A DNA stretch of 64,000 nt from an uncultured Alphaproteobacteria bacterium. GTDB lineage: Bacteria; Pseudomonadota; Alphaproteobacteria; RF32; CAG-239. The notes beneath the pieces are model-generated. The model was not told the origin of the DNA and did no database searches. It saw only the letters and a program-made list of their open reading frames with translations. Positions 2 to 48,291 of this stretch are shown one piece after another; the stretch's first letter is position 1; every line of letters starts with the position of its first letter. A program made the position numbers and the translations under genes. Location of the stretch: the NCBI GenBank assembly GCA_944392295.1, contig CALXWE010000001.1, positions 67,239 through 131,238 of the forward strand, given 5' to 3'.

Positions 2-514
2 ACAGCACCAGGTGTATTATTTGCCGAATTAATCAGTGAAAGTGAATTAAAAATTTATACATCGGAAGAAGCTAGTCAATTAGCAGAGTGTTATTACGGT
101 GTATCAAATATTTATGCAAGATACTTTCCCGATAGCCAAATATTAACTTATGTAAAATGTAGTGAAGCATCGTCTTTGAATGATTTTATATACGGAGTAT
201 TTAAATATAATGCTGACGGTAAATGGCAAAAGTTAAATGTGGTGCTTCCGGCCGAAGTACCTGAAAATCTGGGCTATTCAGCAACACAATATTGTAAATA
301 TTTAGCAGTTTCAACAGATATGAGCAGATGTATTGTTGGCTACTGGGTATCCAGTTCTTCTCAAGTGCTTTACCGTTATCAATTAGAAAATTTTGATGGT
401 AACAATCTTTATCAATATCGTCGAGAAATAATAACGGAAAATTGTTTAACCGGCAAGGCTAACCAAGATATACCAAGTGGTCAAAGTGGTGAGGTGAGTA
501 CAGTATTATTATGA
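2..514 (+). CDS. hypothetical protein, 5'-truncated at window edge; translationally coupled (ATGA overlap) to downstream spanin genes, possibly lysis-module protein
   Basis: Frame open from position 2 to the stop at 512-514 with no stops; the stop overlaps the ATG of the next gene; no recognisable motifs. Confidence 0.35.
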   Translation, partial: TAPGVLFAELISESELKIYTSEEASQLAECYYGVSNIYARYFPDSQILTYVKCSEASSLNDFIYGVFKYNADGKWQKLNVVLPAEVPENLGYSATQYCKYLAVSTDMSRCIVGYWVSSSSQVLYRYQLENFDGNNLYQYRREIITENCLTGKANQDIPSGQSGEVSTVLL

Positions 515-795
515 AAATATTTTATTTATTCATGATTTTTTCCGCTTTTATGTGCGTTTACCTTAACTTTAGGGTAGACGCACTAAAAGAGCAAAATGAG
601 AGGCTTAAAACCTATAATAATGCCTTGCAATTAAATTCCGAAAGGTTAGTAAAAAATGAAAACGACTACCGTATACAAGTTAAAACGCTGCAAGCGGAAA
701 TTAAAAAGGATAAAAGCGGTTTTGATTGGCAGTACAATCTTAGCAATAATCCTGTTCGTATCAGGGTGTCAAAAGAGTGCTTATCCTGTGATTGA
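511..795 (+). CDS. i-spanin (Rz-like) phage lysis protein
   Basis: N-terminal TM segment (IFYLFMIFSAFMCVYL) followed by coiled-coil-like charged region; a lipoprotein ORF is embedded in +1 frame, classic Rz/Rz1 architecture. Confidence 0.5.
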   Translation: MKIFYLFMIFSAFMCVYLNFRVDALKEQNERLKTYNNALQLNSERLVKNENDYRIQVKTLQAEIKKDKSGFDWQYNLSNNPVRIRVSKECLSCD

Positions 796-910
796 GCCGA
801 TTAACTGCCTAAGGGAATGGACCACGCCCGAAGAGCTTTTATATTGTGCCAAGGAGTATGATATAAAGTATAATTCTTTACGGCGCCAATTAACCCCGAA
901 TGCCGATTAA
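656..910 (+). CDS. o-spanin (Rz1-like) outer-membrane lipoprotein, overlapping i-spanin in +1 frame
   Basis: Lipobox LFVSGC after basic n-region; short Pro/Cys-containing mature part; overlaps 511-795 out of frame. Confidence 0.5.
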   Translation: MKTTTVYKLKRCKRKLKRIKAVLIGSTILAIILFVSGCQKSAYPVIEPINCLREWTTPEELLYCAKEYDIKYNSLRRQLTPNAD

Positions 911-4095: not shown

Positions 4096-5418
4096 ATGCC
4101 CAAACACCCATCTCTTATTTTTTATGAAAAATATTTTCCGCTGCTGGAAATGGATAACGGTAAATACGATACTTTTGTTTTTACCGGCGGTCGCGGCTCA
4201 TTAAAAACCGGGCACGTTTGTCGGGCAGTTTTGGTGGCCATGATGCGCTCTAAAAAACGTGTTGCCGTGTTCAGAGAAACTAAAGTTTCCACCGAAGAAA
4301 GTCTGTATATTGAATTTAAAGAATTAATCAATAGCGAATTTTTTAATCGAGGGTTTGATTATTCTAAAAATAAAATCGTTCATAAATCCACCGGCTCGGA
4401 ATTGTTCTTTATGGGGTTGCAAGATAAAAATCAGAGTGCGCGCGAGAGCCTAAAAGGCTTGGCTCAGGTAGATATTTTATTAATCGACGAAGCCCAAGCC
4501 GTCAGCGCTGCCGTATGGAGCGTACTGTTAAAAACCATACGAAAACAAGGCGTCGTTTTAATTGTTATTTATAACCGTATAGATGACGACTTACCGGTTG
4601 AACAGGCTCTGTTTTTAGATTACGTTTCAATGTCGGCACCCGATAAAACTTATTTTGTAGAGGTAAACTATCCTGAGGTAGAACATTTAGGCGTGTTATC
4701 GGAAAAATTTTTAACCTACGCCGGTTTGATAAAACAAAACAAGCCCGATGAATATGAACGCGATTATCTAAACAAGCCCAAAGGCTCCGATGCCGCCAAA
4801 GTTGTTAAATATTGGTCGCCGGAAAACATTAATCCCGATATTCGCTATTGTGAAGATTTGGATATTTACTGGAGCCTTGATTTTAACGTTAATCCGGCTA
4901 TGTCAACGCTTGCTCATTACGATGGCAAAAAGTTTTTTGTTTTTGATGAATTAGTCTTAAATAATGTTATAACTCAGGACGTCGTCGATGAATTTATGCA
5001 TCGCTATCCGCCGGAAAAGGTTAGGGGAATAATTCAAATTTGCGGTGATGCTTCGGGCAAATATCGCAAGACCCAAAGCCGGTTTTCTGATTATGCCATT
5101 ATTGTTAATACGTTGGCTAAAAACGGGTATCATTATAAACTTAATTTACGTCCATTTAATCCGCCGATTATTGCCAGGGTTAATGCGTTTAACAAACAAG
5201 TTTTAACTGATGACGGTAACAGAAATGTACTGGTTCATCCAAGGTGTAAGTGGCTTATTTATAATATGAAAAATCTGCGTTACAAAGAAGGAACGAATAT
5301 CATCGATGAGGCAACGCCTTCGCAAATTGCTGATGATGACGCCAAACTTTACTTAGGACATATCTTTGATGCCGTAAGCTATATGGTAGAATTTTTTAAA
5401 CCAGTCGTTAAAGAATGA
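4096..5418 (+). CDS. terL: phage terminase large subunit (PBSX/Terminase_3-like)
   Basis: Walker A-like FTGGRGSLKTGH, Walker B VDILLIDEAQ, C-terminal nuclease-like region. Confidence 0.85.
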   Translation: MPKHPSLIFYEKYFPLLEMDNGKYDTFVFTGGRGSLKTGHVCRAVLVAMMRSKKRVAVFRETKVSTEESLYIEFKELINSEFFNRGFDYSKNKIVHKSTGSELFFMGLQDKNQSARESLKGLAQVDILLIDEAQAVSAAVWSVLLKTIRKQGVVLIVIYNRIDDDLPVEQALFLDYVSMSAPDKTYFVEVNYPEVEHLGVLSEKFLTYAGLIKQNKPDEYERDYLNKPKGSDAAKVVKYWSPENINPDIRYCEDLDIYWSLDFNVNPAMSTLAHYDGKKFFVFDELVLNNVITQDVVDEFMHRYPPEKVRGIIQICGDASGKYRKTQSRFSDYAIIVNTLAKNGYHYKLNLRPFNPPIIARVNAFNKQVLTDDGNRNVLVHPRCKWLIYNMKNLRYKEGTNIIDEATPSQIADDDAKLYLGHIFDAVSYMVEFFKPVVKE

Positions 5419-5473
5419 CTATTTTACTAAACTAATAAGAGAGTTACTTAAGCTTGAAAGGGGTGCTCTGTTT

Positions 5474-5660
5474 GATGACAAAACCGAACAAAATCGAACA
5501 TTTTCGAACATTTTTGCGCTGGACATTTTTTGTAAAAAAAGGCTATAAAAAAGCTATAATCGTAAGATCGAGTGCAAGCCATAAACTCTCACGATTATAT
5601 TTAAACTTAAACTGAAATTTTAACAACCAATACCGAAGCTCATAACTTCGGTATTTTTTT
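5474..5660 (+). repeat. cassette element copy A: 3 cgaaca iterons, promoter, stem-loop, intrinsic terminator
   Basis: Shares ...cgaacattttcgaacatttttgcgctggacattttttgtaaaaaaaggctataaaaaagctataatcgtaagatcgagtgcaagccataaactctcacgattat...taccgaagctcataacttcggtattttttt with copies C and D. Confidence 0.8.
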
Positions 5661-5749
5661 ACAAGAAGTAAAGCCCATGTTTTATTATGGGCTTTACAAA
5701 AATAAACAAAAGTTGTACTGTGTGAAAAAATCAACCGAGGAGGCTGTCA

Positions 5750-6658
5750 ATGAAAATAATTAAATATCTGATTGCGGAACTTTTGTTTATTATCTTAATT
5801 ATCAATAATTACGGTATGTTTGTTAATATGGATAAAGCCGATTTGGTTTGCATTAACGAGGGTATCAACAATTATCTGCAATTTGATTGGAATAGTTATT
5901 TTCATTGGTTCCGAGATGATATAAATACCGTTTGTCGTTTTGATACACAAAGCTTATTTATGTATTTTTGGTTTGTTCTTACTTATTATACCTTATTTAA
6001 AATCATTGCTCTCAAAATCTTCCCTGATAGCTTAAAAATAAAATTTTTGATTCCCGAAACTTTGGTTTACATATTGTCTTTCGGCATACGAATTGTTTGG
6101 ACCGATGGTTTTGAAGTAACATCCGGAAGTCTGCAAAACGCCGCTCTCGGTTTGATGTATATGTTCTCACCGTTCATTGTATATGTTATTATTGTATATT
6201 TAGCATACCACATGGCTGAGACCTATGGCAGGAAAATGCCGCAATCCGTTAAAAACTTATTTTTAAGTATTGGCTTGTTTATTTTTTCGGTAGTGGCATT
6301 TCCGCCGATATGGGCAATACTTTACAGCTTGTTGCTGCTGCCTTTTATTTTATGGTTTATTTACCTTTACATACCCCGACTATTCGTAAAATCTGTTGCC
6401 GATAAACAAACAACTCCTGCCTCTTATTTTTGTCTTAGGTTGCCTGCCGGAATCATCTTGTTTTTGGGATGTATCAGTTATGAAATTTTATTTTCAAGAC
6501 AGTATTACCGAGCTCTGTCTATAGAGGAGTTTTTCGCCTATTATATTTTGTGTACAACCTTTATCCGATTGACCTATTATCTGTTAATTGCTTTAATTTG
6601 GAATCCCAAAGCCGTTAAAAATTTTGTAAATAAACTACATTTAACTCAAAATACCTAG
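5750..6658 (+). CDS. integral membrane protein (multi-TM), cargo gene
   Basis: RBS gaggagg; many hydrophobic segments. Confidence 0.5.
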   Translation: MKIIKYLIAELLFIILIINNYGMFVNMDKADLVCINEGINNYLQFDWNSYFHWFRDDINTVCRFDTQSLFMYFWFVLTYYTLFKIIALKIFPDSLKIKFLIPETLVYILSFGIRIVWTDGFEVTSGSLQNAALGLMYMFSPFIVYVIIVYLAYHMAETYGRKMPQSVKNLFLSIGLFIFSVVAFPPIWAILYSLLLLPFILWFIYLYIPRLFVKSVADKQTTPASYFCLRLPAGIILFLGCISYEILFSRQYYRALSIEEFFAYYILCTTFIRLTYYLLIALIWNPKAVKNFVNKLHLTQNT

Positions 6659-6669
6659 AGCTTGAATAT

Positions 6670-7104
6670 TTATTCAAGCTCTACCACAAAGGTTGCAACC
6701 CCCAATCGTTGCCAATTTTCATCATAGGAATATTCTTTTATGTAGCGGGCGGTACATATCCCTTTGGCATCTTTAAGGAAACATTCTTCCGGTACATATC
6801 TGTAAAACTCGTCACTGCCGAAAATTTGACATTTTAAAATTATATAATCATTTTCATTTTCCAACAGCTGACAAGTATTAGTCGTCCAACCGTCCTTATA
6901 ATTATCGCCGTCTTTATGAATAACCGAGTTGGAGTAGCGTAGGGAATTGGGTGTTAAAAATGTTTCACGCGAATTAGACGATAAAGGAGATAATTGTTTA
7001 TAAAACAACGGATTTACAAATTTTTCTTCCTTCTCACTTCCGGCCCGCAATGAACATCCGACAATAAATAACACGCTTAATATTACCCATAAACTTTTTT
7101 TCAT
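6670..7104 (-). CDS. lipoprotein, Cys-containing, cargo gene
   Basis: Signal peptide with lipobox FIVGC. Confidence 0.5.
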   Translation of the reverse strand: MKKSLWVILSVLFIVGCSLRAGSEKEEKFVNPLFYKQLSPLSSNSRETFLTPNSLRYSNSVIHKDGDNYKDGWTTNTCQLLENENDYIILKCQIFGSDEFYRYVPEECFLKDAKGICTARYIKEYSYDENWQRLGVATFVVELE

Positions 7105-7168
7105 AATCTTATTTCCTTATACTTAATTTCCATAAATAATAATTAATCCCGGCTATTCCGTCAAAGAT

Positions 7169-7657
7169 TTACTTGTAATTTTTAAGAAAGCCATAAACGG
7201 CAAGTTCCTGTTTAATTTGCAATAATAGGGTATTAAGGTATTGCAAAACAATTTCTTTGGATTTTGCCATATTTTCCTGTTCGCATACAGTGCCGGCAGG
7301 AGTTGCATATTTATTTAAGCAATAAACAACCCCATAGGCCGATAATGTGGCTTTAACATAGTTGTTATAACTTGCCATATTACGCTCAAGATTATGATTA
7401 TAAAAAGTTTTCATAACCTTATCGGCAAGAGTGTTGGCACAATCAAATTGTCGAGAGCTTTCGGTACATAAAGATAATTCTTTTTGATATTGTGTGATGA
7501 GGGTGTAGTCATCAATTATATCTTTGATTTTTTCTTTACTGCTCCAATCGCTTTTAGCATACACATCATCTATATCAATACCATGGTAAATTTCCGCATT
7601 AACGTTTGTTGCAGATATTAAAAAGCTCAAAAGAGAAATAATGTATATTTTTTTCAT
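7169..7657 (-). CDS. secreted protein with signal peptide, cargo gene
   Basis: AAGGA RBS 8 nt upstream of ATG at 7657; N-terminal signal peptide ...ATNVNA; four Cys. Confidence 0.5.
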   Translation of the reverse strand: MKKIYIISLLSFLISATNVNAEIYHGIDIDDVYAKSDWSSKEKIKDIIDDYTLITQYQKELSLCTESSRQFDCANTLADKVMKTFYNHNLERNMASYNNYVKATLSAYGVVYCLNKYATPAGTVCEQENMAKSKEIVLQYLNTLLLQIKQELAVYGFLKNYK

Positions 7658-7751
7658 AATCAATTATCCTTATGCATAAAACCGATGAAACAAGTTTAGA
7701 TTTAATCCATAATATAAGCAACAACTTTTATAGTTAAAGCACAAGAAAATA

Positions 7752-7840
7752 ATATTTTAACTTAAACTAAAATTTTAACAACCAATACCGAAGCTCTTTG
7801 CTTCGGTATTTTTTTTATTTAAAAGAAAGGAAAATAAATC
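7752..7840 (+). repeat. cassette element copy B (3' part only: terminator hairpin + conserved RBS leader)
   Basis: ttaacttaaactaaaattttaacaaccaataccgaagctctttgcttcggtattttttttatttaaaagaaaggaaaataaatcATG. Confidence 0.75.
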
Positions 7841-8428
7841 ATGACAAATAAAAAATATAATCCATTTGCGGATATGTATAACTTTAATGCTAACAGTAAC
7901 AACTGGGTACAAAAGCTAGGATATAATGCGGATTTTTATAATAATCCGCTGGGCTATAACAGCTCACCCATCCCCAGACCTTATGATAACACAACAAAAT
8001 TAAATAATAATGTTCCTAAATATTGGGACAGTGCAAATGAGGGTAGAAAAGTTCTTGACTATGTAATACAAAAAGAAGGGAATATTACTCCTGAATCACA
8101 AGATTTTTTTGCATATGGAAAATCTGGTCTGACTGGAGGATTAAACACGATACAGAATTATATGTCTTTAAGAGATAAAAGATATACAGATAAGTACAAG
8201 CACGCACTTATAAATTGTAAGGCAGCTCAATCCGGAAAAGGAGGATACGATATTGTAAAATTTATTTCTGATTTAAAAGAAAAGAGTGATGTTAAAAATG
8301 GTCGCAATACTATTGACAGTAGTTTAAGTGATAACTATGCTAACGAAATAGGACGGCTGTTAGGAACAAAATATCGCAAAGGAGATTGTGATGCTCTCAT
8401 CCAACAATACATTAACAAAAATTGGTAA
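7841..8428 (+). CDS. MTNK-family protein with shared N-terminal module and unique C-terminal domain (candidate toxin/effector)
   Basis: First ~52 aa near-identical to 11801-13084 protein (MTNKKYNPFADMYNFNANSNNWVQKLGYNADFYNNPLGYNSSP.PRPYDNTT). Confidence 0.6.
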   Translation: MTNKKYNPFADMYNFNANSNNWVQKLGYNADFYNNPLGYNSSPIPRPYDNTTKLNNNVPKYWDSANEGRKVLDYVIQKEGNITPESQDFFAYGKSGLTGGLNTIQNYMSLRDKRYTDKYKHALINCKAAQSGKGGYDIVKFISDLKEKSDVKNGRNTIDSSLSDNYANEIGRLLGTKYRKGDCDALIQQYINKNW

Positions 8429-8557
8429 GTGGCTTATTATATCTTTTGTTTTCGTTGCGGGGCTTGTGCTTACTGCCCTTATTAGTTTGAGCTGTGTCTA
8501 CATCTTCAGCTTGTAACAGGTCTATAAAATTGTTTGAGTAAAACAAGGAGATTGCTG

Positions 8558-9349
8558 ATGAAAAAGGCTCTGTACATTCTTTTAGAGGTCTTGTTTATAT
8601 TTTTGATTGTAAATCATCGGGAATATTGGCTTGTTGCCAACCAAGCAGTCCGGGTAAACGGAGTTTATGTATGGCTTATCTTAACGGCTTATTCAGTCCT
8701 TAAAACATACGGAGCCTTTAATTGGAAACTTACCATAAAGCCTGTTTTTGTAATATGTGAACTATTGTTGTTTATATTATCAGGTTGCGTTTTGGGATTA
8801 TACACCCAAAGTTTGCCAGTAACCGCACAAATATACACTGTATTTTTACCCTTAATTTTTTATGTTTTGGTATTGGGGATGGGATGGTATATACTGCTTA
8901 AAAACAACCCGACAATAAACGATTTTACCACCCATTGCCAACAGCATTCCAAACGTTATCTTGCTTTGATTTGGTTTTTGGCTGCCTTGTTTATATGTCC
9001 GCCGATTTTAACCGTTGTTTACAGCAAGGTATGGTTTGTGCTGATACTGATGGGAATATATGTGTTTTTGCCGTATAAAATAAGTACTTTGTTGCTCAAA
9101 GATTTATCGTTACACAAATTCTTTTCATTAGGAAAAGTAATTCCCGTAATGTTGATAATTTTTGTTCAGATAAATCTGGAAGCGATACTCAGTGGCTTTT
9201 GTTTTTACGGATCTTGGTTGGATGCTTATAGGGTGGTAAAATACATAATAATTGTTGCCGTTTTGCGATTTATTATTTGCGGCTTAATATTATGCGTATT
9301 AGATTACAAACAAATTAAAGGATTATTTATAACAGCCAAAACAAAATAA
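8558..9349 (+). CDS. integral membrane protein (candidate immunity protein)
   Basis: ATG with AAGGAG RBS; multiple TM helices. Confidence 0.5.
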   Translation: MKKALYILLEVLFIFLIVNHREYWLVANQAVRVNGVYVWLILTAYSVLKTYGAFNWKLTIKPVFVICELLLFILSGCVLGLYTQSLPVTAQIYTVFLPLIFYVLVLGMGWYILLKNNPTINDFTTHCQQHSKRYLALIWFLAALFICPPILTVVYSKVWFVLILMGIYVFLPYKISTLLLKDLSLHKFFSLGKVIPVMLIIFVQINLEAILSGFCFYGSWLDAYRVVKYIIIVAVLRFIICGLILCVLDYKQIKGLFITAKTK

Positions 9350-9377
9350 ATAAGGTTAATCATATAAGAGGTGATTT

Positions 9378-9914
9378 ATGGAAGAAGGAACACAAAAGCC
9401 AGAAGAAGATGACGCATTGTTCAAAGAGGATGCCAAGACCATATATTTTTCATTTGAAGGGGTATTCGGTCGCATACAATTTTTTATAGTAGCGGTTACC
9501 CTCGGTGGTTTTATGGATTTAATGAGTACGGGAAATAATATAGTACTCGTGGTCATAGGCACAGCCATAGTATTTTATGCGATGCTGGCAGCGATTCAAA
9601 AACGCAGTCGTGATATGAATATTGGCGGTAGTTTGTTTATTTTATTGTATTCTCTGAGTTTTCCGATAAGTCGGATGATGTTATACGGTAGGGATACTGG
9701 AAATCCGATAATTATCCATAACGACATAATTCGGAAAAGTTTTTACGGAGCGTTAATAGGATATTTGATAGTATCATTACTTTTGGTGCTTATGCCCGGA
9801 GCAAAGAAGAAGGATATGAGCAAAAGGAGTCCGTTATTAAAAAATCCTCCGCTGTATTTTTTAATATGCGTAATAATTTATGCCATAGTCGCCTATTTTA
9901 TCAGAGATTTATAG
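9378..9914 (+). CDS. DUF805-like inner membrane protein
   Basis: YFSFEGVFGRIQFF motif resembles DUF805 signature; several TM segments; terminator hairpin ccaaagagggagg...ctccctcttt downstream. Confidence 0.45.
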   Translation: MEEGTQKPEEDDALFKEDAKTIYFSFEGVFGRIQFFIVAVTLGGFMDLMSTGNNIVLVVIGTAIVFYAMLAAIQKRSRDMNIGGSLFILLYSLSFPISRMMLYGRDTGNPIIIHNDIIRKSFYGALIGYLIVSLLLVLMPGAKKKDMSKRSPLLKNPPLYFLICVIIYAIVAYFIRDL

Positions 9915-9984
9915 CTTGTAAGAGATTACCAAAGAGGGAGGATAAAAACTCCCTCTTTAGTATTTTAAAAGCAAATAAGTGAGA

Positions 9985-10273
9985 GGGAAACCGCTCTCAA
10001 AAAGGACAAAAACGGCGTATTTAATGACAAAACCGAACATTTCCGAACATTTTCGAACAAAAATGAACAATTCCGAACAAAATCGAACATTTTCGAACAT
10101 TTTTGTGCTGGACATTTTTTGTAAAAAAAGGCTATAAAAAAGCTATAATCGTAAGATCGAGTGCAAGCCATAAACTCTCACGATTATATTTTAACTTAAA
10201 CTAAAATTTTAACAACAGATACCGAAGCTCATAACTTCGGTATTTTTTTATTTAAAAGAAAGGAAAATAAATC
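9985..10273 (+). repeat. cassette element copy C (full: 7 iterons, promoter, stem-loop, terminator, RBS leader)
   Basis: Near-identical to 11505-11800. Confidence 0.85.
10145..10259 (+). ncRNA. candidate short terminated leader transcript (stem-loop ataatcgt...acgattat + intrinsic terminator taccgaagctcataacttcggta-T7)
   Basis: Promoter-like TGGACA/TTGTAA with TATAAA/TATAAT upstream; strong terminator ~110 nt downstream and 14 nt before next ATG. Confidence 0.35.
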
Positions 10274-10531
10274 ATGACAAATAAATTAATCACTGTAGCT
10301 GGTAAATATGCAGCTAAAAAAGTTCGTAATAAAACCGTTAATAAGGCCATGGAAAAAATAAGCGAGCCATATGAAAAATTCAAAAAAGAGGTTTTCAGTA
10401 TAAAACCTCTAAATGTTGGGGAAAGAGAAACCATAAAATGTTTACAAAATCGTCATAACACCTTAGACTATTGCAAGAATATAGGAAACAAGGCAAGGAA
10501 AGCTTATCAAAAATCCGGAAAATATAGGTAA
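10274..10531 (+). CDS. small basic protein starting with MTNK leader
   Basis: Shares cassette RBS and first 4 codons with other MTNK genes. Confidence 0.45.
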   Translation: MTNKLITVAGKYAAKKVRNKTVNKAMEKISEPYEKFKKEVFSIKPLNVGERETIKCLQNRHNTLDYCKNIGNKARKAYQKSGKYR

Positions 10532-10595
10532 CTTTTTATTAAAACAAAAGTACTCATCAATACGGACAATATGCACTGTGTAACGGGAAGATAAT

Positions 10596-10856
10596 ATGAA
10601 AAAGATAGTACTGTTTATAATTGGTCTTATGTGTATACCGCCGATATTGGGGTATTTGACAACATATGTGAGTAACAATCCTGAATGTGAAGTATACACC
10701 GGATTTTGGGGAGTGCTGTATCTATTTATTTATATTCTTTTTCCTTTGTTATATAAAGGGAAAATAAAACAAGCTATGAATAGATATGCTTTTTATGCCT
10801 TGTTGTACGGCATTTTGTTTCTGATAATAAATATATTACTTATTTGTTTTAATTAG
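10596..10856 (+). CDS. small membrane protein
   Basis: Three hydrophobic segments in 86 aa. Confidence 0.4.
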   Translation: MKKIVLFIIGLMCIPPILGYLTTYVSNNPECEVYTGFWGVLYLFIYILFPLLYKGKIKQAMNRYAFYALLYGILFLIINILLICFN

Positions 10857-10906
10857 ATGTAATGAAGCTGTAAAAAGCAGCAAGATTATAATGGTAAATA
10901 GAAAGG

Positions 10907-11416
10907 ATGGCAGAAATGAAGAATATAATATTTTTACTGCTGGCAGTACTAATGCCGACATTGAGTTTAGCAGCAGAAGAAAAGTCAACATTTACATATG
11001 AAGCAGAAAAATGTTCCGGTGAAGAAGATGTATTTATACGAGGTTTAGAGGAAGAATTAGCTAATTGTAAAATTCAAATGCCGGATAATCCATCTACGGC
11101 AGATATGAATAATGCCACTTATGATTTTGGCGATTGTTGTATTGCTGTAGCCAATAAACTTTTTGATAGAAATTACAAAAAGTATAATGAGCAGGTAAAA
11201 CAGGATTTTGATGCACTTGTCAAAGCATTTTATGCAAATGCTCATGATATGGTTCAACATAGCGATTTTGGACTTTTAAGAGGAGGAACTATGTACAATA
11301 CGGAAGCCATTGCTACGGGGGCTTTTTGGATTAGAGATGTGGTAAAAGAATACCTTTATCAAGCACGAATGGAATGCGATGATAAGGCAGGATTTGATTC
11401 ACTGGATATAGAATAG
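10907..11416 (+). CDS. secreted protein with signal peptide
   Basis: MAEMKNIIFLLLAVLMPTLSLAAEEK signal peptide; Cys-containing. Confidence 0.45.
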   Translation: MAEMKNIIFLLLAVLMPTLSLAAEEKSTFTYEAEKCSGEEDVFIRGLEEELANCKIQMPDNPSTADMNNATYDFGDCCIAVANKLFDRNYKKYNEQVKQDFDALVKAFYANAHDMVQHSDFGLLRGGTMYNTEAIATGAFWIRDVVKEYLYQARMECDDKAGFDSLDIE

Positions 11417-11504
11417 ATTATTTTAATCAAACAATGAAAAAGAGGCTTATAAAAGTCTCTTTTTTGTGCTTTTAAAGAAAGGAAAAATAAGTTAGGCTAG
11501 ATAA

Positions 11505-11800
11505 AAGGATAGGGAAATTGTTTCTAAAACGGACAAAAACGGCGTATTTAATGACAAAACCGAACATTTCCGAACATTTTCGAACAAAAATGAACAATTC
11601 CGAACAAAATCGAACATTTTCGAACATTTTTGTGCTGGACATTTTTTGTAAAAAAAGGCTATAAAAAAGCTATAATCGTAAGATCGAGTGCAAGCCATAA
11701 ACTCTCACGATTATATTTTAACTTAAACTAAAATTTTAACAACAGATACCGAAGCTCATAACTTCGGTATTTTTTTATTTAAAAGAAAGGAAAATAAATC
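11505..11800 (+). repeat. cassette element copy D (full)
   Basis: Near-identical to copy C, including 7 cgaaca iterons at ~11558-11632. Confidence 0.85.
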
Positions 11801-13084
11801 ATGACAAATAAAAAATATAATCCATTTGCGGATATGTATAACTTTAATGCTAACAGTAACAACTGGGTACAAAAGCTAGGATATAATGCGGATTTTTATA
11901 ATAATCCGCTGGGCTACAACAGCTCACCCACTCCCAGACCTTATGACAACACAACTGTCTTTGGTGCAGATGATGACAATGAAGTTGTAAGTGGGTTTAA
12001 GCCTCAAACCCCTCGGACAACAAGCTTAAATAACGGATTTAATGTTAATAAGCAGCAACCGTCCATGGGTAATATGTCAAGCTTTAACCTTAAAGGAAAT
12101 AATAACGCTTCTGACTTTAATACGGGCAGTAGCAACTGGGTGCAAAGGTTAGGGTATAATGCGGACTTTTATAATAATCCGCTGGGCTATAACAGCTCGC
12201 CAACTCCCAGACCTTATGACAACACAACTGTCTCTGGTATAAATAACAGCTTTAATATTAATAACCGACAGCCTTCTTTAAGCGGATTGGAAAGTTACAA
12301 TCAACCTCAAAAGAAGCAGTATACTAACCCTAAAGTAAAACCCTTTACTTCATGGGATATTGCTTTATCAGCTCTTGAAGGATTTGGAGAGGGAGCAGCC
12401 GGAGGAACTGAAAATATTATGAATGGACTAACTTTGGGAGGATATGGGATTGTTAGTGATAAATTAGGGTTAGGTATGAAAGAAAGAAAAACAAAATTAC
12501 AACTTTCCTCAGATTATGCTGGTGTAGGAGATGTTTTTAATGTAACCAATAAAGGGACATATTTAATTGGAAATGGATTGTTATTATACCTATTGCGATC
12601 AAAAGGGATACCGGCTATTGGACAAGCTTATAATATATACAATATTTTTAATGGAAGTCGTAACCTTGCAAACCAATTGCACAGAGGTAGCAATTTTAAG
12701 GATATTTACATGGGGAAGATTGATAAAAATAAATTTAATCAAATTAATGATATTAGACTAGGTTTAGGCGAGGCTCCTATTTTATCCAGACAAGTAAAAA
12801 TCCCCAAGCAAAATGTACAACATATTTGGGATAGGCGAATTAATATTGGACAATCTAAACCCAGAGAAGTTGCAAATTATGTGAAAGATAGCATTTTTAG
12901 TAAAGATAGTCAGGTGTTTCCAGGTAATGTCTCTCGTAACCAGGTGATTATTAAAACGGGTGATAAACACCCCAGTATGAGTGTTATATCAAAAGATGAT
13001 ATATTTGATGGTATATCGGTAAGAAGTTCTATGCAGAAAGATTTGCCAAGCCTATTAAAAAAATATCCCGATTTAAAATACTAA
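11801..13084 (+). CDS. MTNK-family protein, N-terminal module present twice, Gly-rich linker, unique C-terminal domain (candidate toxin/effector)
   Basis: Residues 1-52 and ~107-150 repeat SNNWVQ(K/R)LGYNADFYNNPLGYNSSPTPRPYDNTTV; C-terminal ~250 aa unrelated to 7841 protein. Confidence 0.6.
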   Translation: MTNKKYNPFADMYNFNANSNNWVQKLGYNADFYNNPLGYNSSPTPRPYDNTTVFGADDDNEVVSGFKPQTPRTTSLNNGFNVNKQQPSMGNMSSFNLKGNNNASDFNTGSSNWVQRLGYNADFYNNPLGYNSSPTPRPYDNTTVSGINNSFNINNRQPSLSGLESYNQPQKKQYTNPKVKPFTSWDIALSALEGFGEGAAGGTENIMNGLTLGGYGIVSDKLGLGMKERKTKLQLSSDYAGVGDVFNVTNKGTYLIGNGLLLYLLRSKGIPAIGQAYNIYNIFNGSRNLANQLHRGSNFKDIYMGKIDKNKFNQINDIRLGLGEAPILSRQVKIPKQNVQHIWDRRINIGQSKPREVANYVKDSIFSKDSQVFPGNVSRNQVIIKTGDKHPSMSVISKDDIFDGISVRSSMQKDLPSLLKKYPDLKY

Positions 13085-13404
13085 AGTGGCTTTGGATGGA
13101 CGGTGTTTCCCATCATTACAACACAAATACGTCGTGTTCTGCAGTTGCACCGATTTTCTGCTCTTCAAAGCCACTACATTTATGTAGTATTTGTCACTAC
13201 ATAAAATATGCATTAGGTTGACAAATAACCTAATAACATTGATATGTTAAGCTAAAAACAACAATTTGTCAATCATATTGATTATCTGTATTTTTTAATA
13301 TGCGTAATAGTTTATTCCATAGTCGCCTACTTTATCAGAGATTTATAGTCTGTAAGAGATTACCAAAGAGGGGGTAAAAGCTCCCTCTTTGGTATTTTAA
13401 AAGC

Positions 13405-13515
13405 AGACAAGGGATAGGGAAATCGCTCTCAAAACGGACAAAAACGTCTTTAATTTTAACAACCAATACCGAAGCTCATAACTTCGGTATTTTTTTATAA
13501 TAAGAAAGGAAAATA
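13405..13515 (+). repeat. cassette element copy E (deletion derivative: upstream part joined directly to terminator + RBS)
   Basis: gggaaatcgctctcaaaacggacaaaaacg...ttttaacaaccaataccgaagctcataacttcggtattttttt; upstream 13290-13400 duplicates 9850-9960 (3' end of 9378-9914 gene). Confidence 0.75.
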
Positions 13516-15294
13516 ATGTTCGCATATACTCTTGAAAAAGAAAGCTTTATGTCAACGGGAAATCCCGATGATAAGCGGGCAGTAGTTCAAGATGTGGTGG
13601 ATTTATTCACATCTTGGGATACTGTTCGTACTAAACAAAAAAATATTGCCGATAAGTTGCATTCGGAAATCTATCTGGATGACCGAAAAAAAACTTATGT
13701 CCCGGAAGATGACGAATGGAAATCGGATATCCATCTTAATAAAATCTATTCGTTATTCCAAACACATCAGGCCTACATTTGGGATAATATCTATTCTAAT
13801 GTGGAAAATATGTTTGATGTTGAAGGAATTGATGATCTTTCGGCACAAACGGCTTTGTTGCAAAAACAAAAACTGGTTAATACCTTTTATAATATCGGTA
13901 TTCAACGCAAGCTGGATACCGCTATTGAGCATTTAGACAGTGTCGGTGAAATTTGTTTGTTTATCGGTTGGCAAAAAAAATATAAACAAATCCGCCGTCG
14001 TTTGGATAAATTCAGCTCCTCTGCCGATAAGCCCTTGCTTACTCAAGGCTTGTTCGGGGTGTTTAATCAGGAAATTTATAACGGAGCCGATGTTGAGGCC
14101 ATTAACCCGCTCAATTTGGTATTTGACCCCAGGGTTAATCCTGACGATAAGGAAAAATGGAATGCCTGCGGTAAAATTATTAAATCATGGGAAACATATC
14201 AGTCGGTAGCTTCCAATAAATTGTATAATCTTAAAAAAGAAGAGCTTGATGATTTGCATAAAATGTTAAACTCTCCTTCCAAAGATGAAGATCGTTCGGA
14301 AACAGATAAAACCGATGATGTGGTTGATAGCGATAGGGTTGAGGTTTTACAATATTGGGGAGATTATGTTACCCCAAAAGGCGATGTTTTAAAAAACTGG
14401 CATATCGTAGTTATCGGTCGTAAATATCTGGCGGTGTTTGAACCTAATCGCTGGGTAATTAACCCGATTATCAATATGGCTTTATTTAGGGATATCAACA
14501 GTAAGCGAGGTATTCCCGAATTATGGTCCATTTACGATATATGTAAGGAACAGGAAAATAAAGTAAACTTACAAAATGATGCTCAATCACTTAACCTAAA
14601 TCCTCCGGCCTATGCTCCGGAGGGTTTTTTTAAGGAGGAAAAAGTAAAACTCTTCCCCGGTAAACAAGTGGAATACAAACAGGGTCTTGAAGATCCCGGA
14701 GCAATCATCAAAATGCAGTTTCCGTTGTTCAGTAATGAAAATATTATTCAGTATTATGACAATACGGCTTCAAGCGTAAGCGGTATTTTTCCCAATATGC
14801 AGGGACAACAGGAAGTAAGCAAAGCTACGGCCACCGAAATAAGCATTAAGGTTCAGGGACAAACCACGCGTTTGGGTAAAACTTTGGATACCATCAAGCA
14901 AAATGTTATTGTCCCGATGGTGCAAAAAGTTGCCGAACTTGAAGCTAATATGAAATTCGGTGATGAGGTTTTAAAGCTTAACATTTTGGGGTATCCGGTT
15001 ACCAAAACCATTGATGATGTGGTGCGTCAGGGCAATTATGAATATCGTTATACCGATAATACCGGTATTCAGAAAAAGCTTAACACCAATCAAACGCTTA
15101 TTCAGATTTTTACGCAAATCTGGAATGATGAAAGCGTCCCCTTAAACAAACTGCAAATTGTTAAAGAAGTACTGCGTAATGCCGGCATAGAAAATACCGA
15201 AAAGTTTTTTCTAAGCCAAAATCAAATTCCGGCAGCCAATCAAAATACAGCGGCGGCTGGTGTCAACAATAATCTTTTACCCGTTCAAAAGTAG
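13516..15294 (+). CDS. putative portal protein
   Basis: 592 aa, first structural gene after terminase/cargo, followed by scaffold and capsid genes. Confidence 0.55.
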   Translation: MFAYTLEKESFMSTGNPDDKRAVVQDVVDLFTSWDTVRTKQKNIADKLHSEIYLDDRKKTYVPEDDEWKSDIHLNKIYSLFQTHQAYIWDNIYSNVENMFDVEGIDDLSAQTALLQKQKLVNTFYNIGIQRKLDTAIEHLDSVGEICLFIGWQKKYKQIRRRLDKFSSSADKPLLTQGLFGVFNQEIYNGADVEAINPLNLVFDPRVNPDDKEKWNACGKIIKSWETYQSVASNKLYNLKKEELDDLHKMLNSPSKDEDRSETDKTDDVVDSDRVEVLQYWGDYVTPKGDVLKNWHIVVIGRKYLAVFEPNRWVINPIINMALFRDINSKRGIPELWSIYDICKEQENKVNLQNDAQSLNLNPPAYAPEGFFKEEKVKLFPGKQVEYKQGLEDPGAIIKMQFPLFSNENIIQYYDNTASSVSGIFPNMQGQQEVSKATATEISIKVQGQTTRLGKTLDTIKQNVIVPMVQKVAELEANMKFGDEVLKLNILGYPVTKTIDDVVRQGNYEYRYTDNTGIQKKLNTNQTLIQIFTQIWNDESVPLNKLQIVKEVLRNAGIENTEKFFLSQNQIPAANQNTAAAGVNNNLLPVQK

Positions 15295-22603: not shown

Positions 22604-22640
22604 GATTATGCCGCATTACCTAATGCGGCATAAGTTTTTT
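22604..22640 (+). terminator. intrinsic terminator between tail fibre gene and lysis cassette
   Basis: ttatgccgcattacctaatgcggcataagtttttt. Confidence 0.6.
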
Positions 22641-22655
22641 AAAAAGGAGGTAAAA

Positions 22656-22913
22656 ATGGATTTTTTAAATTTACTGGGAGCGATGTCGGGGTGCGCCTCA
22701 ATAGTGTCGTTTTTAGCGTTGGTAATAAGACTTGGAGAGTGGAAAGCCCGCCATGAGGAACGCTTGGCAAGTCAGGGCAAACGCATTGACGGGATAGAAA
22801 TCAAGCAAGATTCGTTATCGCTATTATTAAACAAAAACAACGAGATACTAGCTGAAATTAAAGTAAAAGTTGATTTGATGCACAAAGAAAAAAATAAAAG
22901 GAGTAAGCAATGA
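22656..22913 (+). CDS. holin-like single-TM protein
   Basis: aggagg RBS; one TM (LGAMSGCASIVSFLALVI) then charged coiled-coil tail; stop overlaps lysozyme ATG. Confidence 0.55.
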   Translation: MDFLNLLGAMSGCASIVSFLALVIRLGEWKARHEERLASQGKRIDGIEIKQDSLSLLLNKNNEILAEIKVKVDLMHKEKNKRSKQ

Positions 22914-23380
22914 TAGATGAAGAAGAAATCATAAGAAGATTGATATTACATGAAGGTATGAGATTAGAACCATATAAATGTTCTAAAGGTTATTTAACCA
23001 TAGGCGTGGGCAGAAATTTAATAACCAATCCTTTGAGTAAAGAGGAAAAAGAATATATCGGTGACTGGAGTAAGGGTATTACCAGAGAGGAGGCATTGTA
23101 CTTATTAAGGCACGATATCAAAAGATTAATCAAAGAGTGTAAAGAAAAAATAAGCTGCTGGCGTTATTTAGATGCGGAAAGAAAATATGCTCTTTTAGAT
23201 ATGGCATTTAATTTAGGAATAAGCGGGGTTTTAAAGTTTAAGAATATGCTGGAGGCGTTATCAATCGGTGATTATCGCGGAGCAGCCAAAGAATGCTTAA
23301 ATTCAAAATATGCTAAAGATGTTGGGATAAGAGCGGTAAGAATAGCTAATATTTTTAAGACTGGGAGGTTTGAAATATGA
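22910..23380 (+). CDS. phage lysozyme (GH24, T4-lysozyme-like endolysin)
   Basis: LHEGMRLEPYKCSKGYLTIGVGRNL matches GH24 catalytic motif. Confidence 0.9.
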   Translation: MIDEEEIIRRLILHEGMRLEPYKCSKGYLTIGVGRNLITNPLSKEEKEYIGDWSKGITREEALYLLRHDIKRLIKECKEKISCWRYLDAERKYALLDMAFNLGISGVLKFKNMLEALSIGDYRGAAKECLNSKYAKDVGIRAVRIANIFKTGRFEI

Positions 23381-46959: not shown

Positions 46960-48291
46960 ATGAAAATAAAAAATTTACTTATAGGCTTATTGTGCATTAT
47001 CAGCTTTCCTGCGCATGCCGAATTGGAGATAGACATTACTGGAGCTATGCGAGAACCGATGCCGATAGCTTATCCTAAAATGATAAACGATGGCAAAGCC
47101 ATGGGTTTATTCGGAGTAGGAATGTATGCCGATAGGATTCGCGACGTTGTTATGGCCGACTTAGACCGCAGCGGATTATTCAGAGTTATAGATGACGGCA
47201 GTTACATTGAAGATTTAACTTCAATAAATCAGCGACCCAATTTTATAGATTGGCAGGCAATAAAAGCCCATGCTTTAGTACAAAGTGCGGTGCAAGAAAC
47301 AACCGACGGTAAATTAAAAGTAGAACTACGCTTATGGGATGTTATGAGCGGCGAGCAGTTGCAAGGACAATCGTATTCTACAAGTAAAGATAACTGGCGT
47401 CGCATAGCCCATATTATTGCCGATACGATTTATGAGAGATTAACCGGTGAAAAAGGTTATTTTGATACACGCGTTGTTTATGTTTCGGAAAGCGGACCGG
47501 CAACTCGTAGGGTAAAACGCTTGGCAATTATGGATCAAGATGGCGAAAATCACCGTTTTTTAACATCAGGTACCTCAATGGCTTTAACTCCGCGTTTTTC
47601 ACCTAATATGCAAAAAGTAACTTATTTGTCATTTTCAGGTTCTGCACCTAAAGTGTATATTTTAGATATTGAAAGCGGTAAACAAGAGTTGGTAGGTCAT
47701 TTTCCGGGTATGACGTTTGCTCCGGTATTTTCGCCCGACAGTTCTAAATTGTTGCTGTCTTTTGCAGCCAACGGTAATACTGAGATTTATGAGATGGATT
47801 TAAAAAATCGTACCAGCCGTCAGTTAACCAAAAATCCGGCGATTGATACATCACCGAGTTACTCGCCGGACGGCAAACAAATCGTATTTAACTCCGACAG
47901 AGGCGGCAATCAACAACTTTACGTTATGGACGCTGACGGCTCCAATGTAAAGAGAATAAGTTTCGGCAACGGTCGTTATGCAACGCCGGTATGGTCTCCC
48001 CGAGGCGATTACATAGCCTTTACCAAAATGGCGGGAGGACAGTTTTACATCGGAGTTATGCATCCTGACGGCAGCGGCGAAAGATTGCTGGCCAGCGGTT
48101 ATTTGGTAGAAGGTCCGACCTGGTCGCCGAACGGACGTGTGTTAATGTTCTTCCGTCAAGATAGGGGAACGGCACGTAAGAATGCTCCGGTCAGATTGTA
48201 TACAATAGACTTAACCGGCTACAATGAACGTATGGTAGTAACTCCGGCCGAAGGTTCGGATCCGGCATGGTCTCCGTTGTTGCCGCAATAA
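46960..48291 (+). CDS. tolB: Tol-Pal system beta-propeller protein TolB
   Basis: Signal peptide, repeated SPDG/WSP propeller blades. Confidence 0.9.

Follow-up and report, generated by a model that had tools for sequence, protein, structure and literature searches.

A probable polymorphic toxin-immunity island as cargo of a prophage-like element in an uncultured alphaproteobacterium

Why should two genes just upstream of the portal gene of a phage-like element encode proteins that begin with the same fifty or so residues and then have nothing more in common? This question is posed by a 64-kb stretch of the chromosome of an uncultured alphaproteobacterium (contig CALXWE010000001.1). We refer to this whole stretch of 64,000 nucleotides as the window, and coordinates of the form 7841-8428 are positions in it. 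The region at 5.4-13.5 kb that contains the two genes, called MTNK genes after the first four residues of their products, is very probably a polymorphic toxin-immunity island and constitutes cargo of the prophage-like element. An earlier note, made from the sequence alone, had read the constant N-terminal domain, the variable C-terminal domains and the small adjacent membrane genes as the architecture of such a system. This reading is borne out by at least seven different C-terminal domains, a prok-SAA toxin tip and co-variation of the neighbouring genes. Relatives of the island, designated L001-L014, were found on metagenome contigs. The two proteins in the window and their parts are as follows.

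7841..8428, + strand: MTNK-SAA toxin of 195 amino acids (aa); N-terminal module A comprises aa 1-52 (7841-7996) and the prok-SAA/Lipocone domain aa ~57-195.
11801..13084, + strand: MTNK toxin of 427 aa; module A copy 1 at 11801-11956 and copy 2 at 12113-12229.
12338-12502, + strand: glycine-rich middle module of the 427-aa protein (KPFTSWDIALSALEGFGEG...), part of 11801..13084.
About 12590-13081, + strand: C-terminal '427-type' domain; the same C-domain occurs behind other N-modules in homologues.

The open reading frames (ORFs) at 7841-8428 and 11801-13084, as well as the near-identity of their first ~52 residues, were described correctly in the earlier note: aa 1-52 of the two proteins are identical at 51 of 52 positions (BLASTP, E 3e-33). 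Past residue 52 the same comparison yielded no significant similarity, and the complete divergence that had been claimed is real. The longer protein does carry the module a second time, with boundaries other than the proposed aa ~107-150, since it is aa 105-143 that repeat aa 14-52 (33/39 identical). These are the only three copies of module A in the 64-kb window (tblastn). At the DNA level, 7810-7995 and 11770-11955 are 98% identical, the match beginning 31 nt 5' of the ATG. The module A peptide contains NWVQK/RLGYNADFYNNPLGYNSSPTPRPYDNTT, its conserved motifs are Y-x-x-P-L-G-Y and D-[TM]-Y-N-F, and N, Q, Y, P, G and S account for 52-55% of the first 60 residues of the MTNK proteins. Neither protein possesses a signal peptide or a hydrophobic transmembrane (TM) segment. 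In AlphaFold2 (AF2) models, aa 1-44 were returned with a predicted local distance difference test score (pLDDT) <50 and free of secondary structure, on an alignment that is shallow there, with two sequences covering the module. Module A is thus predicted to be disordered. Comparison of the 30-codon core between copy 1 and copy 2 of the 427-aa gene revealed seven synonymous changes and a single non-synonymous one. Because the internal copy keeps the peptide while synonymous sites change, the peptide itself and not merely the DNA appears to be selected and, judging from these codon changes, the module-A core is under purifying selection.

When 5.8 billion proteins were searched, module A (80-95% identical) was detected on a near-identical SAA-type protein, three different GH108 proteins, one Tlde1-like protein and two small proteins of the 'helical' type; a second search contributed a variant closely related to the 427-aa protein, the P0064 type and the 453-aa P0065 type. 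In close relatives, at least seven unrelated C-domains, or tips, thus stand behind module A. In other alphaproteobacterial contigs, SAA-like, GH108 and 427-type tips are also present behind a sister module of 85 aa, module B, as well as behind further N-termini. Additional tips on module B are pesticin-like lysozyme, VgrG3-C-like and SLT-like domains. Module B follows the pattern M..KYKSPLGY..IDSYGVDHSGF..RDELEYQ..NFWG..NNYGFG, with 13 invariant residues among 23 diverged sequences. Modules A and B have only a nine-residue motif in common (YNNPLGYNS versus YKSPLGYQT, i.e., YxxPLGY), and overall homology between them was rejected, because hhalign aligned nine columns with a probability of 3%. 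Neither aa 1-52 nor module B matched an entry in Pfam, PHROG or NCBIfam, hence neither is a recognised trafficking domain. Altogether, the N-regions of the toxins are predicted to be disordered over 50-180 aa, with duplication in some cases, and the glycine-rich middle module (..ALEGFGEG..NG.TLGG..) is a second junction point. The distribution of module A is narrow. It is absent from IMG/VR and from the JGI metagenomes, and within the GTDB species set it is found in one species only, an uncultured alphaproteobacterial metagenome-assembled genome. In addition, tblastn with P0016, the 427-type domain and two of its remote homologues gave no matches in phages and plasmids. Dozens of short ORFs (P0066-P0130, 50-150 aa) were found to consist of module B alone. 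Probably, these are truncated or displaced 5' modules, typical remnants of recombining toxin loci, or contig breaks at the variable junction.

The nature of the tip is clearest for the 195-aa protein. Its C-domain matches Pfam SAA (PF00277) with 44.4 bits at a cut-off of 30.8, PF00277 is found on all close homologues, and the family profile matches mouse SAA3 in the PDB (E 2.4e-12). Structure prediction of both C-domains had been suggested as a check and was informative for one of them. The AF2 model of the 195-aa protein reaches a pLDDT of ~90 for aa 57-195 and adopts the SAA fold, the best seven Foldseek matches all being SAA1/SAA3 (probability 1.00, target TM 0.72-0.78), while the model of the 427-aa protein (pLDDT 40) is not usable. 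SAA belongs to the Lipocone superfamily, and prok-SAA domains have been described as toxin tips carried by polymorphic toxins that are predicted to cleave the head groups of lipids, for example lipid II (Burroughs, Nicastro & Aravind 2025, PMC12419801). The prok-SAA motif sNxxGR, which like the active-site positions was defined in that study, reads ANEIGR in the 195-aa protein, and DKYKH is kept in the alignment. Across 25 SAA homologues, little or no variation is seen at D117, H121, A167 and N168, G171 and R172 are kept in at least 90%, and of two conserved cysteines one is invariant and the other nearly so. By sequence, predicted fold and motif, we assign this C-domain to the prok-SAA/Lipocone family.

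Among the other tips, GH108, Pesticin (32 bits) and VgrG3-like_C (93 bits) exceed the Pfam cut-offs and SLT and Tlde1 are weak matches. Protein P0041 has a weak NCBIfam match to a holin-associated muramidase. Most of the recognisable tips target the cell envelope from the periplasmic side, and those of this kind that are joined to module A are the SAA-like Lipocone domain, the GH108 muramidase and the Tlde1-like domain. None of the GH108, pesticin-like, helical or Tlde1 tips is encoded in the window. A role of the MTNK proteins as phage endolysin was considered and rejected, as a canonical GH24 endolysin is present at 22910-23380.

Are the small genes around the toxin genes immunity genes? The features concerned are listed here.

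5750..6658, + strand: 302-aa protein with ~6 hydrophobic segments, orphan immunity-type gene; distant paralogue of 8534-9349 (21% identity over 298 aa, E 7e-12).
6670..7104, - strand: 144-aa lipoprotein (lipobox VGC), orphan immunity-type gene; 56% identity to L011 4816-5256(-), E 5e-35.
7169..7663, - strand: 164-aa secreted protein, orphan immunity-type gene; 47-51% identity to reverse ORFs after GH108 toxins in L001, L004 and L014, 29% in L008.
8534..9349, + strand: 271-aa multi-TM protein (~7 hydrophobic segments), candidate immunity protein of the SAA toxin; follows MTNK-SAA here and in L013.
9378..9914, + strand: 178-aa DUF805-like membrane protein (~3-4 hydrophobic segments), an orphan here; 40-50% identity to the ORFs that immediately follow helical-type toxin genes in L004 and L008.
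10274..10531, + strand: 85-aa basic ORF, whose MTNK start is due to the leader repeat, which includes codons 1-4; outside the N-module family; conserved in L001.
10596..10856, + strand: 86-aa protein with three TM segments, kept with its neighbours in L001, L008 and L013.
10907..11416, + strand: 169-aa secreted protein with a signal-like N-terminus and five cysteines, conserved in L001 and L008.

The small membrane and secreted ORFs to which attention had been drawn downstream of the first toxin gene are real, three of them having ~7, ~3-4 and 3 hydrophobic segments and the one at 10907-11416 an N-terminal signal-like segment. The designation of 9378-9914 as DUF805-like holds as a weak match (E 0.017), not as family membership, since its score of 16 bits is below the Pfam PF05656 gathering score of 25.7. 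When the ORFs of eleven islands were clustered and toxin tips compared with their neighbours, the toxin types were shown to travel each with a characteristic membrane or periplasmic neighbour, a co-variation seen across ten loci. GH108 tips are followed by a reverse-strand secreted family at four loci (L001, L004, L008 and L014), and the window orphan 7169-7663(-) is of the same family. Behind pesticin-like tips stands a lipoprotein family on the reverse strand, with the window member 6670-7104(-); the L011 relative of the latter follows a module-B lysozyme-like toxin, and it is also akin to L014 9473-9970(-), which comes after a Pesticin-domain toxin. The VgrG3-C tip is accompanied by a 159-167-aa family, helical tips by the DUF805-like family (window member 9378-9914) and a second SAA subtype (SAA2), in L004 and L002, by a cysteine-rich family. 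Immunity proteins reported for prok-SAA toxins are TM proteins, lipoproteins and a four-Cys domain (PMC12419801), and the cysteine-rich neighbours, going by their sequence pattern only, may correspond to the last of these.

The toxins have neither signal peptide nor TM segment, while all of these neighbours have one or the other. Toxins devoid of export signals combined with partners in the envelope imply that the partners guard against toxin arriving from outside. For the window itself, the suggestion that the neighbours confer immunity needs to be refined. It is plausible for the 271-aa protein 8534-9349, which is the best candidate partner of the 195-aa toxin, is 94% identical in L013 and is present in L008 without the toxin. 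The genes 6670-7104(-), 7169-7663(-) and 9378-9914 are classified as orphan immunity-type genes because their cognate toxin types are missing from the window, and the 427-aa toxin has no protein partner. The trio 10274-11416 (+), found together in the window and L001 and at least partly in L008 and L013, gave no family match. At the level of function, we consider it very probable that related bacteria are killed or inhibited by the toxins, that the neighbours confer immunity by intercepting the toxin in the envelope, and that the 195-aa protein cleaves a lipid head group such as that of lipid II, as has been proposed for prok-SAA.

How did these genes come to reside in a phage-like element? 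The window represents alphaproteobacterial chromosome, with bacterial genes from ~24.7 kb on (ugd, thrS, mdoG/H-like genes, an autotransporter gene, tolB at 46960-48291 and dnaK). The small phage-like element occupies ~2.8-24.7 kb between tRNA-Phe (2184-2259, -) and ugd. It encodes an S24 repressor, a DUF6362 protein, the large terminase subunit, a portal protein of podovirus type, a major head protein, a tail-fibre-like protein, a holin-like ORF and a GH24 endolysin. Without the cargo its size is only ~13 kb, and neither integrase nor replication genes of the element are visible in the window. Candidate identities are a defective prophage, a satellite and a domesticated particle. The cargo island forms an AT-richer insert of 8 kb between the terminase and portal genes (GC 0.32-0.35 versus 0.38-0.40). 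A megablast search of the island against 50,697 phage records matched nothing, and the portal protein had a single distant match. No MuF domain (Pfam) was found on either MTNK protein or on the ORFs 3' of the portal gene, and no prohead protease is recognisable among the head genes. The flanking genes and the lysis genes are the following.

4096..5418, + strand: terminase large subunit, left flank of the island (Pfam Terminase_3, E 2.5e-19; PHROG terminase large subunit, E 4e-30).
13516..15294, + strand: portal protein, bordering the island on the right (PHROG head-tail adaptor/portal, E 1.7e-21; weak Pfam Head-tail_con match).
22608..23380, + strand: lysis genes of the element, a 101-aa single-TM holin-like ORF and the GH24 endolysin (Pfam Phage_lysozyme, 57.6 bits for 22910-23380).

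Further to the left, positions 176-910 (+) encode the C-terminal end of a fibre-like protein of 639 aa and, after it, overlapping ORFs reminiscent of i-spanin and o-spanin (one with a TM helix, the other a nested ORF with a lipobox). In relatives these spanin-like ORFs adjoin accB/accC (L008 and L013 2222-4538). The region may be a remnant or a distal part of a phage-like element.

Cassette exchange is linked to a repeated promoter/leader unit, several copies of which are present in the island.

5392..5691, + strand: promoter/leader repeat copy 1, with three CGAACA units (5486-5510), a TGGACA-N18-TATAAA site and a hairpin at 5630-5658; 70% identical to the reference copy.
7749..7833, + strand: short leader copy before the 195-aa gene, with hairpin 7785-7813, T-run and ribosome-binding site.
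9981..10280, + strand: promoter/leader repeat, reference copy, with seven CGAACA units (10035-10099), TGGACA-N18-TATAAA and hairpin 10219-10247.
11508..11807, + strand: promoter/leader repeat copy 3, 97% identical to the reference copy, with CGAACA units at 11562-11626 and hairpin 11746-11774.
13286..13379, + strand: scar, a 91% copy of the final 94 nt of the DUF805-like cassette (9852-9945), direct repeat.
13430..13514, + strand: short leader copy directly before the portal gene, with hairpin 13466-13494, T-run and ribosome-binding site; right-hand breakpoint of the exchange.

The 300-nt unit also holds a terminator for the preceding gene and a leader of ~110 nt, which ends in the hairpin ATACCGAAG-N7-CTTCGGTAT plus T7, ~25 nt 5' of the ATG. 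All cassettes begin with this promoter/leader. No Rfam family was matched by the leaders. Each full copy contains, just 5' of the promoter-like TGGACA-N18-TATAAA site, 3-7 CGAACA units in exact 10-bp phase, found nowhere else in the window; a phased array of operators or a stretch of intrinsic DNA bending would be possible readings. Of the five hairpin copies in the window, one precedes the portal gene. In the relatives, the hairpin is located before the MTNK gene in L001, L002, L003 and L009, before the GH108 gene of L008 and before the portal gene in L001 and L008, so that it also occurs at a non-phage locus (L002/L009). Its role is either that of a terminator in the leader, dependent on antitermination, or that of a 5' stabiliser of the mRNA, and its occurrence suggests that the toxins are co-regulated with the late operon.

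From position 13452 on, the window and L001 share 98.4% identity over 9.3 kb, and the window and L008 share 98.9%. Just 5' of this position, the window carries the 427-type gene, L001 a two-module GH108 gene with its reverse partner and L008 a one-module GH108 gene with its partner. The breakpoint of exchange therefore falls within the repeated leader, from which it follows that the promoter-leader-module serves as 5' homology for swapping and the next leader as 3' homology. The scar at 13286-13379 tells us that the DUF805-like gene formerly resided between the last toxin gene and the portal gene. Thus, homologous recombination is shown to have placed module A before many unrelated C-domains.

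The cassettes are not confined to the phage-like element. The module-A Tlde1 gene (L002/L009) adjoins ligA and lies 3 kb from a gene for a VirD4/TraG-type coupling protein, at a non-phage locus. When L008 (9400-17400) and L013 (9400-13040) were compared with the window (4096-13516), both the L008 island and the L013 MTNK-SAA cassette proved to have a chromosomal left flank (recJ, DUF308, BOF) instead of terminase, with the portal gene still forming the right flank in L008. This odd left flank reflects either genuine rearrangement or mis-assembly at the 300-nt repeats. Module-B islands reside between housekeeping genes such as gltX/argS and eno, with no phage genes, and arrays of several toxins are present in non-phage islands. 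The neighbour in L010 was considered as a terminase gene and rejected, as no similarity was found.

For the 427-type domain, no match was obtained in Pfam, and a profile search of the PDB gave only a chance TPR match. A profile search of 1.84 billion representatives returned 80 remote homologues, and Pfam scans of 39 of these, member by member, revealed no consistent family. Some of the relatives are giant proteins with LPD38, ART-PolyVal, ParB-like or lethal-factor-like domains, which points to a use of the 427-type domain, as judged from its homologues, in conflict systems. Polyvalent-type giant proteins of this kind are thought to accompany injected DNA.

As to delivery, by analogy we tentatively prefer, with considerable doubt, that the toxins are colicin/pesticin-like bacteriocins released by lysis over contact-dependent secretion and over packaging into virions. 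The complete explanation, a toxin-immunity island combined with a colicin/pesticin-like route, is in our judgement nearly as apt to be right as to be wrong. The toxins would accumulate in the cytoplasm, co-expressed with the late genes by way of the common leader, and would be freed on cell lysis by the holin and endolysin of the element itself. Next, the N-module, being disordered and bearing the conserved motifs, would thread through an outer-membrane protein of a neighbouring cell, engage a periplasmic energy-transducing partner (Tol or Ton) and so draw the toxin into the periplasm. Gram-negative protein bacteriocins have a disordered N-terminus of ~50 or more residues with Ton/Tol epitopes that is threaded through an outer-membrane protein, their porin-binding epitopes are sometimes duplicated, and pore-forming and lipid-II-cleaving bacteriocins finish in the periplasm (PMC12927319). 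The preference for this route arises because module A offers the right size, predicted disorder, duplications, short conserved motifs and tips that act in the periplasm. Pesticin and colicin B contain a TonB box of the DTMVV type, and the TolB epitope of ColE9 is GWSSENNPWGG. FVDTYNF in module A and IDTYGVD in module B resemble DTMVV-type TonB boxes, and NNPLGY and FWGNSPENNYGFG resemble the ColE9 TolB epitope; we regard these analogies as leads only.

A number of observations weigh against the island and its route as just described. The resemblances to TonB and TolB boxes are short and lie in low-complexity sequence. At 195 aa, the SAA toxin cannot accommodate a separate receptor-binding domain of the kind that classical colicins and pyocins have, and other members are equally small (182-195 aa). 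The N-module matches no known trafficking domain, so that the route is proposed by analogy only, and the disorder call was made on an alignment with two sequences over the module. Tlde1 and VgrG3-C are best known from type VI secretion system (T6SS) effectors. A small lysis lipoprotein gene is not present, while phage lysis genes are. Alphaproteobacterial LexA boxes have the form GTTC-N7-GTTC; the CGAACA array was rejected as an SOS box, because its spacing is N6 rather than this N7, and no LexA box was seen. With regard to immunity, no protein partner ORF occupies the immunity position of the 427-type gene at the four loci seen, the pairing of SAA toxin and 271-aa protein rests on one lineage, and a 152-aa TM neighbour family follows two different toxin types. 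Finally, all relatives are metagenome contigs, in which 300-nt repeats could cause mis-assembly.

Alternatively, the proteins could be effectors of contact-dependent secretion, most likely by a T6SS and possibly by a bacteria-killing type IV secretion system (T4SS), with modules A and B acting as N-terminal loading markers. We consider this unlikely. N-terminal markers of T6SS effectors are known in the form of MIX, FIX and RIX, and a repertoire of Tlde1_dom, VgrG3-like_C, muramidases and SLT together with periplasmic immunity is typical of T6SS effectors delivered to the periplasm. Small toxins without signal peptide would suit a secretion system, one module-A gene is found 3 kb from the VirD4/TraG-type coupling protein gene, and hallmarks of T4SS, T6SS and other delivery systems have been reported on Lipocone toxins (PMC12419801). 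However, neither genes for T6SS, type V or type VII secretion systems nor any hcp, vgrG, PAAR, adaptor or virB genes were found within ~10 kb in ten loci, the N-regions with their 50-180 aa of predicted and sometimes duplicated disorder are unlike the known folded loading domains, and the leader common to the phage late operon has no obvious role in secretion. Known effectors of killing T4SS, moreover, have their signal at the C-terminus. The location next to the head genes raises another possibility, i.e., that module A is a packaging signal which directs the toxins into the capsid or tail of the adjacent podovirus-like particle, from where they are injected into the periplasm of the target. 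We judge this improbable, and no less improbable is its extension to a domesticated particle that injects swappable envelope-degrading toxins, with or instead of DNA, as a phage-derived delivery device. The island directly precedes the portal gene in the window as well as in L001 and L008, the leader hairpin is common to the portal operon, MuF polymorphic toxins provide a precedent in the packaging module (PMC5576092), the relatives of the 427-type domain include the giant polyvalent-type proteins (LPD38, ART-PolyVal, ParB-like), and with no integrase or replication genes in the window the element may be domesticated. On the other hand, the module-A Tlde1 gene is at a non-phage locus, the SAA cassette of L013 adjoins chromosomal genes, and module-B toxins with the same tips and immunity families reside in chromosomal islands free of phage genes. 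Neither a MuF domain nor a recognisable prohead protease was found, module A is absent from IMG/VR and the phage collection, and several toxins along with many orphan immunity genes per island suit bacterial warfare more than a virion component. The alternative of T4-style capsid targeting, raised in the earlier note, is not supported and appears improbable, given the module-A genes at the non-phage locus L002/L009 and the module-B toxins in chromosomal islands.

Two further explanations appear very improbable to us. One is that the proteins are alternative or virion-associated peptidoglycan hydrolases of the phage itself and their partners inhibitors serving superinfection exclusion. GH108, lysozyme and SLT are indeed common phage lysin domains, P0041 weakly matches a holin-associated muramidase, and the genes lie inside a prophage-like element; yet this element already has its holin-like gene and GH24 endolysin, the same module carries tips that are not lysins (SAA-like, helical and 427-type), and multi-toxin arrays reside in non-phage islands. 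It is just as hard to believe that the N-terminus has no function as a peptide and is kept only as 5' homology for recombination or for translation initiation. The identity of 98% at the DNA level within the window does run into the untranslated leader, suggesting recent gene conversion, and the unrelated 85-aa ORF owes its MTNK start to the leader. Nevertheless, the internal copy, far from any leader, keeps the peptide (seven synonymous versus one non-synonymous change), the module stands in frame on at least seven tips, and module B retains 13 invariant residues among 23 sequences. The probability that is left over we assign to some route as yet undescribed.

With lysis-released bacteriocins remaining our preferred route, the island can be placed among known systems. 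Polymorphic toxins sensu Zhang et al. 2012 have a conserved N-part, a variable toxin C-part, adjacent co-varying immunity genes and a trafficking N-domain. The island exhibits the N/C variability, tips from toxin families and co-varying neighbours, and its N-modules match no trafficking domain. With prok-SAA polymorphic toxins (PMC12419801) it shares the SAA tip with sNxxGR, the envelope partners and the variable tip behind a constant N-part, but the N-part is outside the hallmarks given there (VirD4-binding, PAAR, WXG/LXG, type IX secretion, MuF and cystatin-like). MuF toxins (Jamet et al. 2017, PMC5576092) are likewise located in the packaging module near the portal gene and likewise have small putative immunity ORFs after them. 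In contrast to these, the toxins of the island have no MuF domain, are encoded upstream rather than downstream of the portal gene, carry tips directed mainly at the envelope and not at molecules of the cytosol, and in part reside outside prophages. Colicin, pesticin and klebicin bacteriocins (PMC12927319) resemble the toxins in an N-terminus of ~50 or more residues that is disordered (by prediction in module A), in a C-domain that acts in the periplasm (muramidase, lipid-II-cleaving, pore-forming) or is nuclease-like, in membrane or periplasmic immunity, in the Pesticin-type lysozyme tip (L014) and in orphan immunity genes. They differ in that the island toxins have no recognisable receptor-binding domain, include members of 182-195 aa and lack a lysis-protein gene or SOS box, with a release that would rely on phage lysis genes. 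T6SS effectors with MIX, FIX or RIX markers are similar in that a short N-terminal region defines otherwise unrelated effectors, in the immunity genes next to them and in the Tlde1/VgrG3-C tips. Differences are that no T6SS genes are near in ten loci, that the N-region is predicted to be disordered and sometimes duplicated, and that the phage late leader is present. Lastly, T4 internal proteins and the cargo signals of extracellular contractile injection systems (eCIS) and PVC also combine a short N-terminal peptide common to unrelated cargo with a position near structural genes. The capsid-targeting sequence of T4 is ~10 residues long and is cleaved by the prohead protease. Module A comprises 52 residues with no recognisable protease gene, immunity genes accompany the cargo, and members exist outside the element.

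Polymorphic toxins, prok-SAA tips and phage-borne toxin families such as MuF (PMC5576092) are thus already known. New are N-modules with no database match and a narrow uncultured host range, the portable promoter-leader unit, the gap between terminase and portal genes as an exchange site, and a tip linked to an RNA. As the N-part names the family and dictates delivery in polymorphic toxins, it matters that module A fits no known route: its partner would reveal either that Alphaproteobacteria have a minimal import signal of colicin type or that secretion machines or phage-like particles have a further loading signal. The paired toxin and candidate immunity genes are a test bed for the recently proposed prok-SAA toxins and bear on the ancestral activity of animal serum amyloid A. 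The packaging-module gap and the portable unit, in turn, let toxin cassettes shuffle between phage and chromosome.

The RNA just mentioned is encoded opposite to the end of the 427-type gene.

13078..13182, - strand: three-stem structured RNA abutting the stop codon of the 427-aa gene, resembling the skipping-rope motif.
13244..13272, - strand: sigma-70-like promoter TTGACA-17-TAACAT aimed at the RNA (promoter scan), with the TTGTCAAT block invariant in the four-locus alignment.

Rfam RF02924 (skipping-rope) matched 3 nt past the stop codon on the opposite strand with 31.6 bits, short of the gathering threshold of 36.7 (E 2e-5, 651 nt searched); for the copies in L010 and L011 no RF02924 match was reported. 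Further copies of the RNA are located at L010 3371-3475, L011 8503-8607 and L012 2400-2504, so that it stands beside every 427-type gene seen (4/4 loci). In the alignment of the window, L010, L011 and L012 a block of ~100 nt is mostly invariant, while the toxin proteins are only ~47-60% identical. RNAalifold folded this block into a three-stem junction with 34 pairs, two of them compensatory, and several G-U pairs fit only the - strand. A covariance model (R1) built from the window, L010 and L011 matched these four places and no others in 233 kb. For skipping-rope RNAs, an association with a protein encoded nearby, irrespective of orientation, has been reported along with a function that is not known (Weinberg et al. 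2017, PMC5737381). That the RNA serves as antitoxin or cofactor for the 427-type tip is a testable idea, and the pairing provides a concrete lead on an orphan RNA class.

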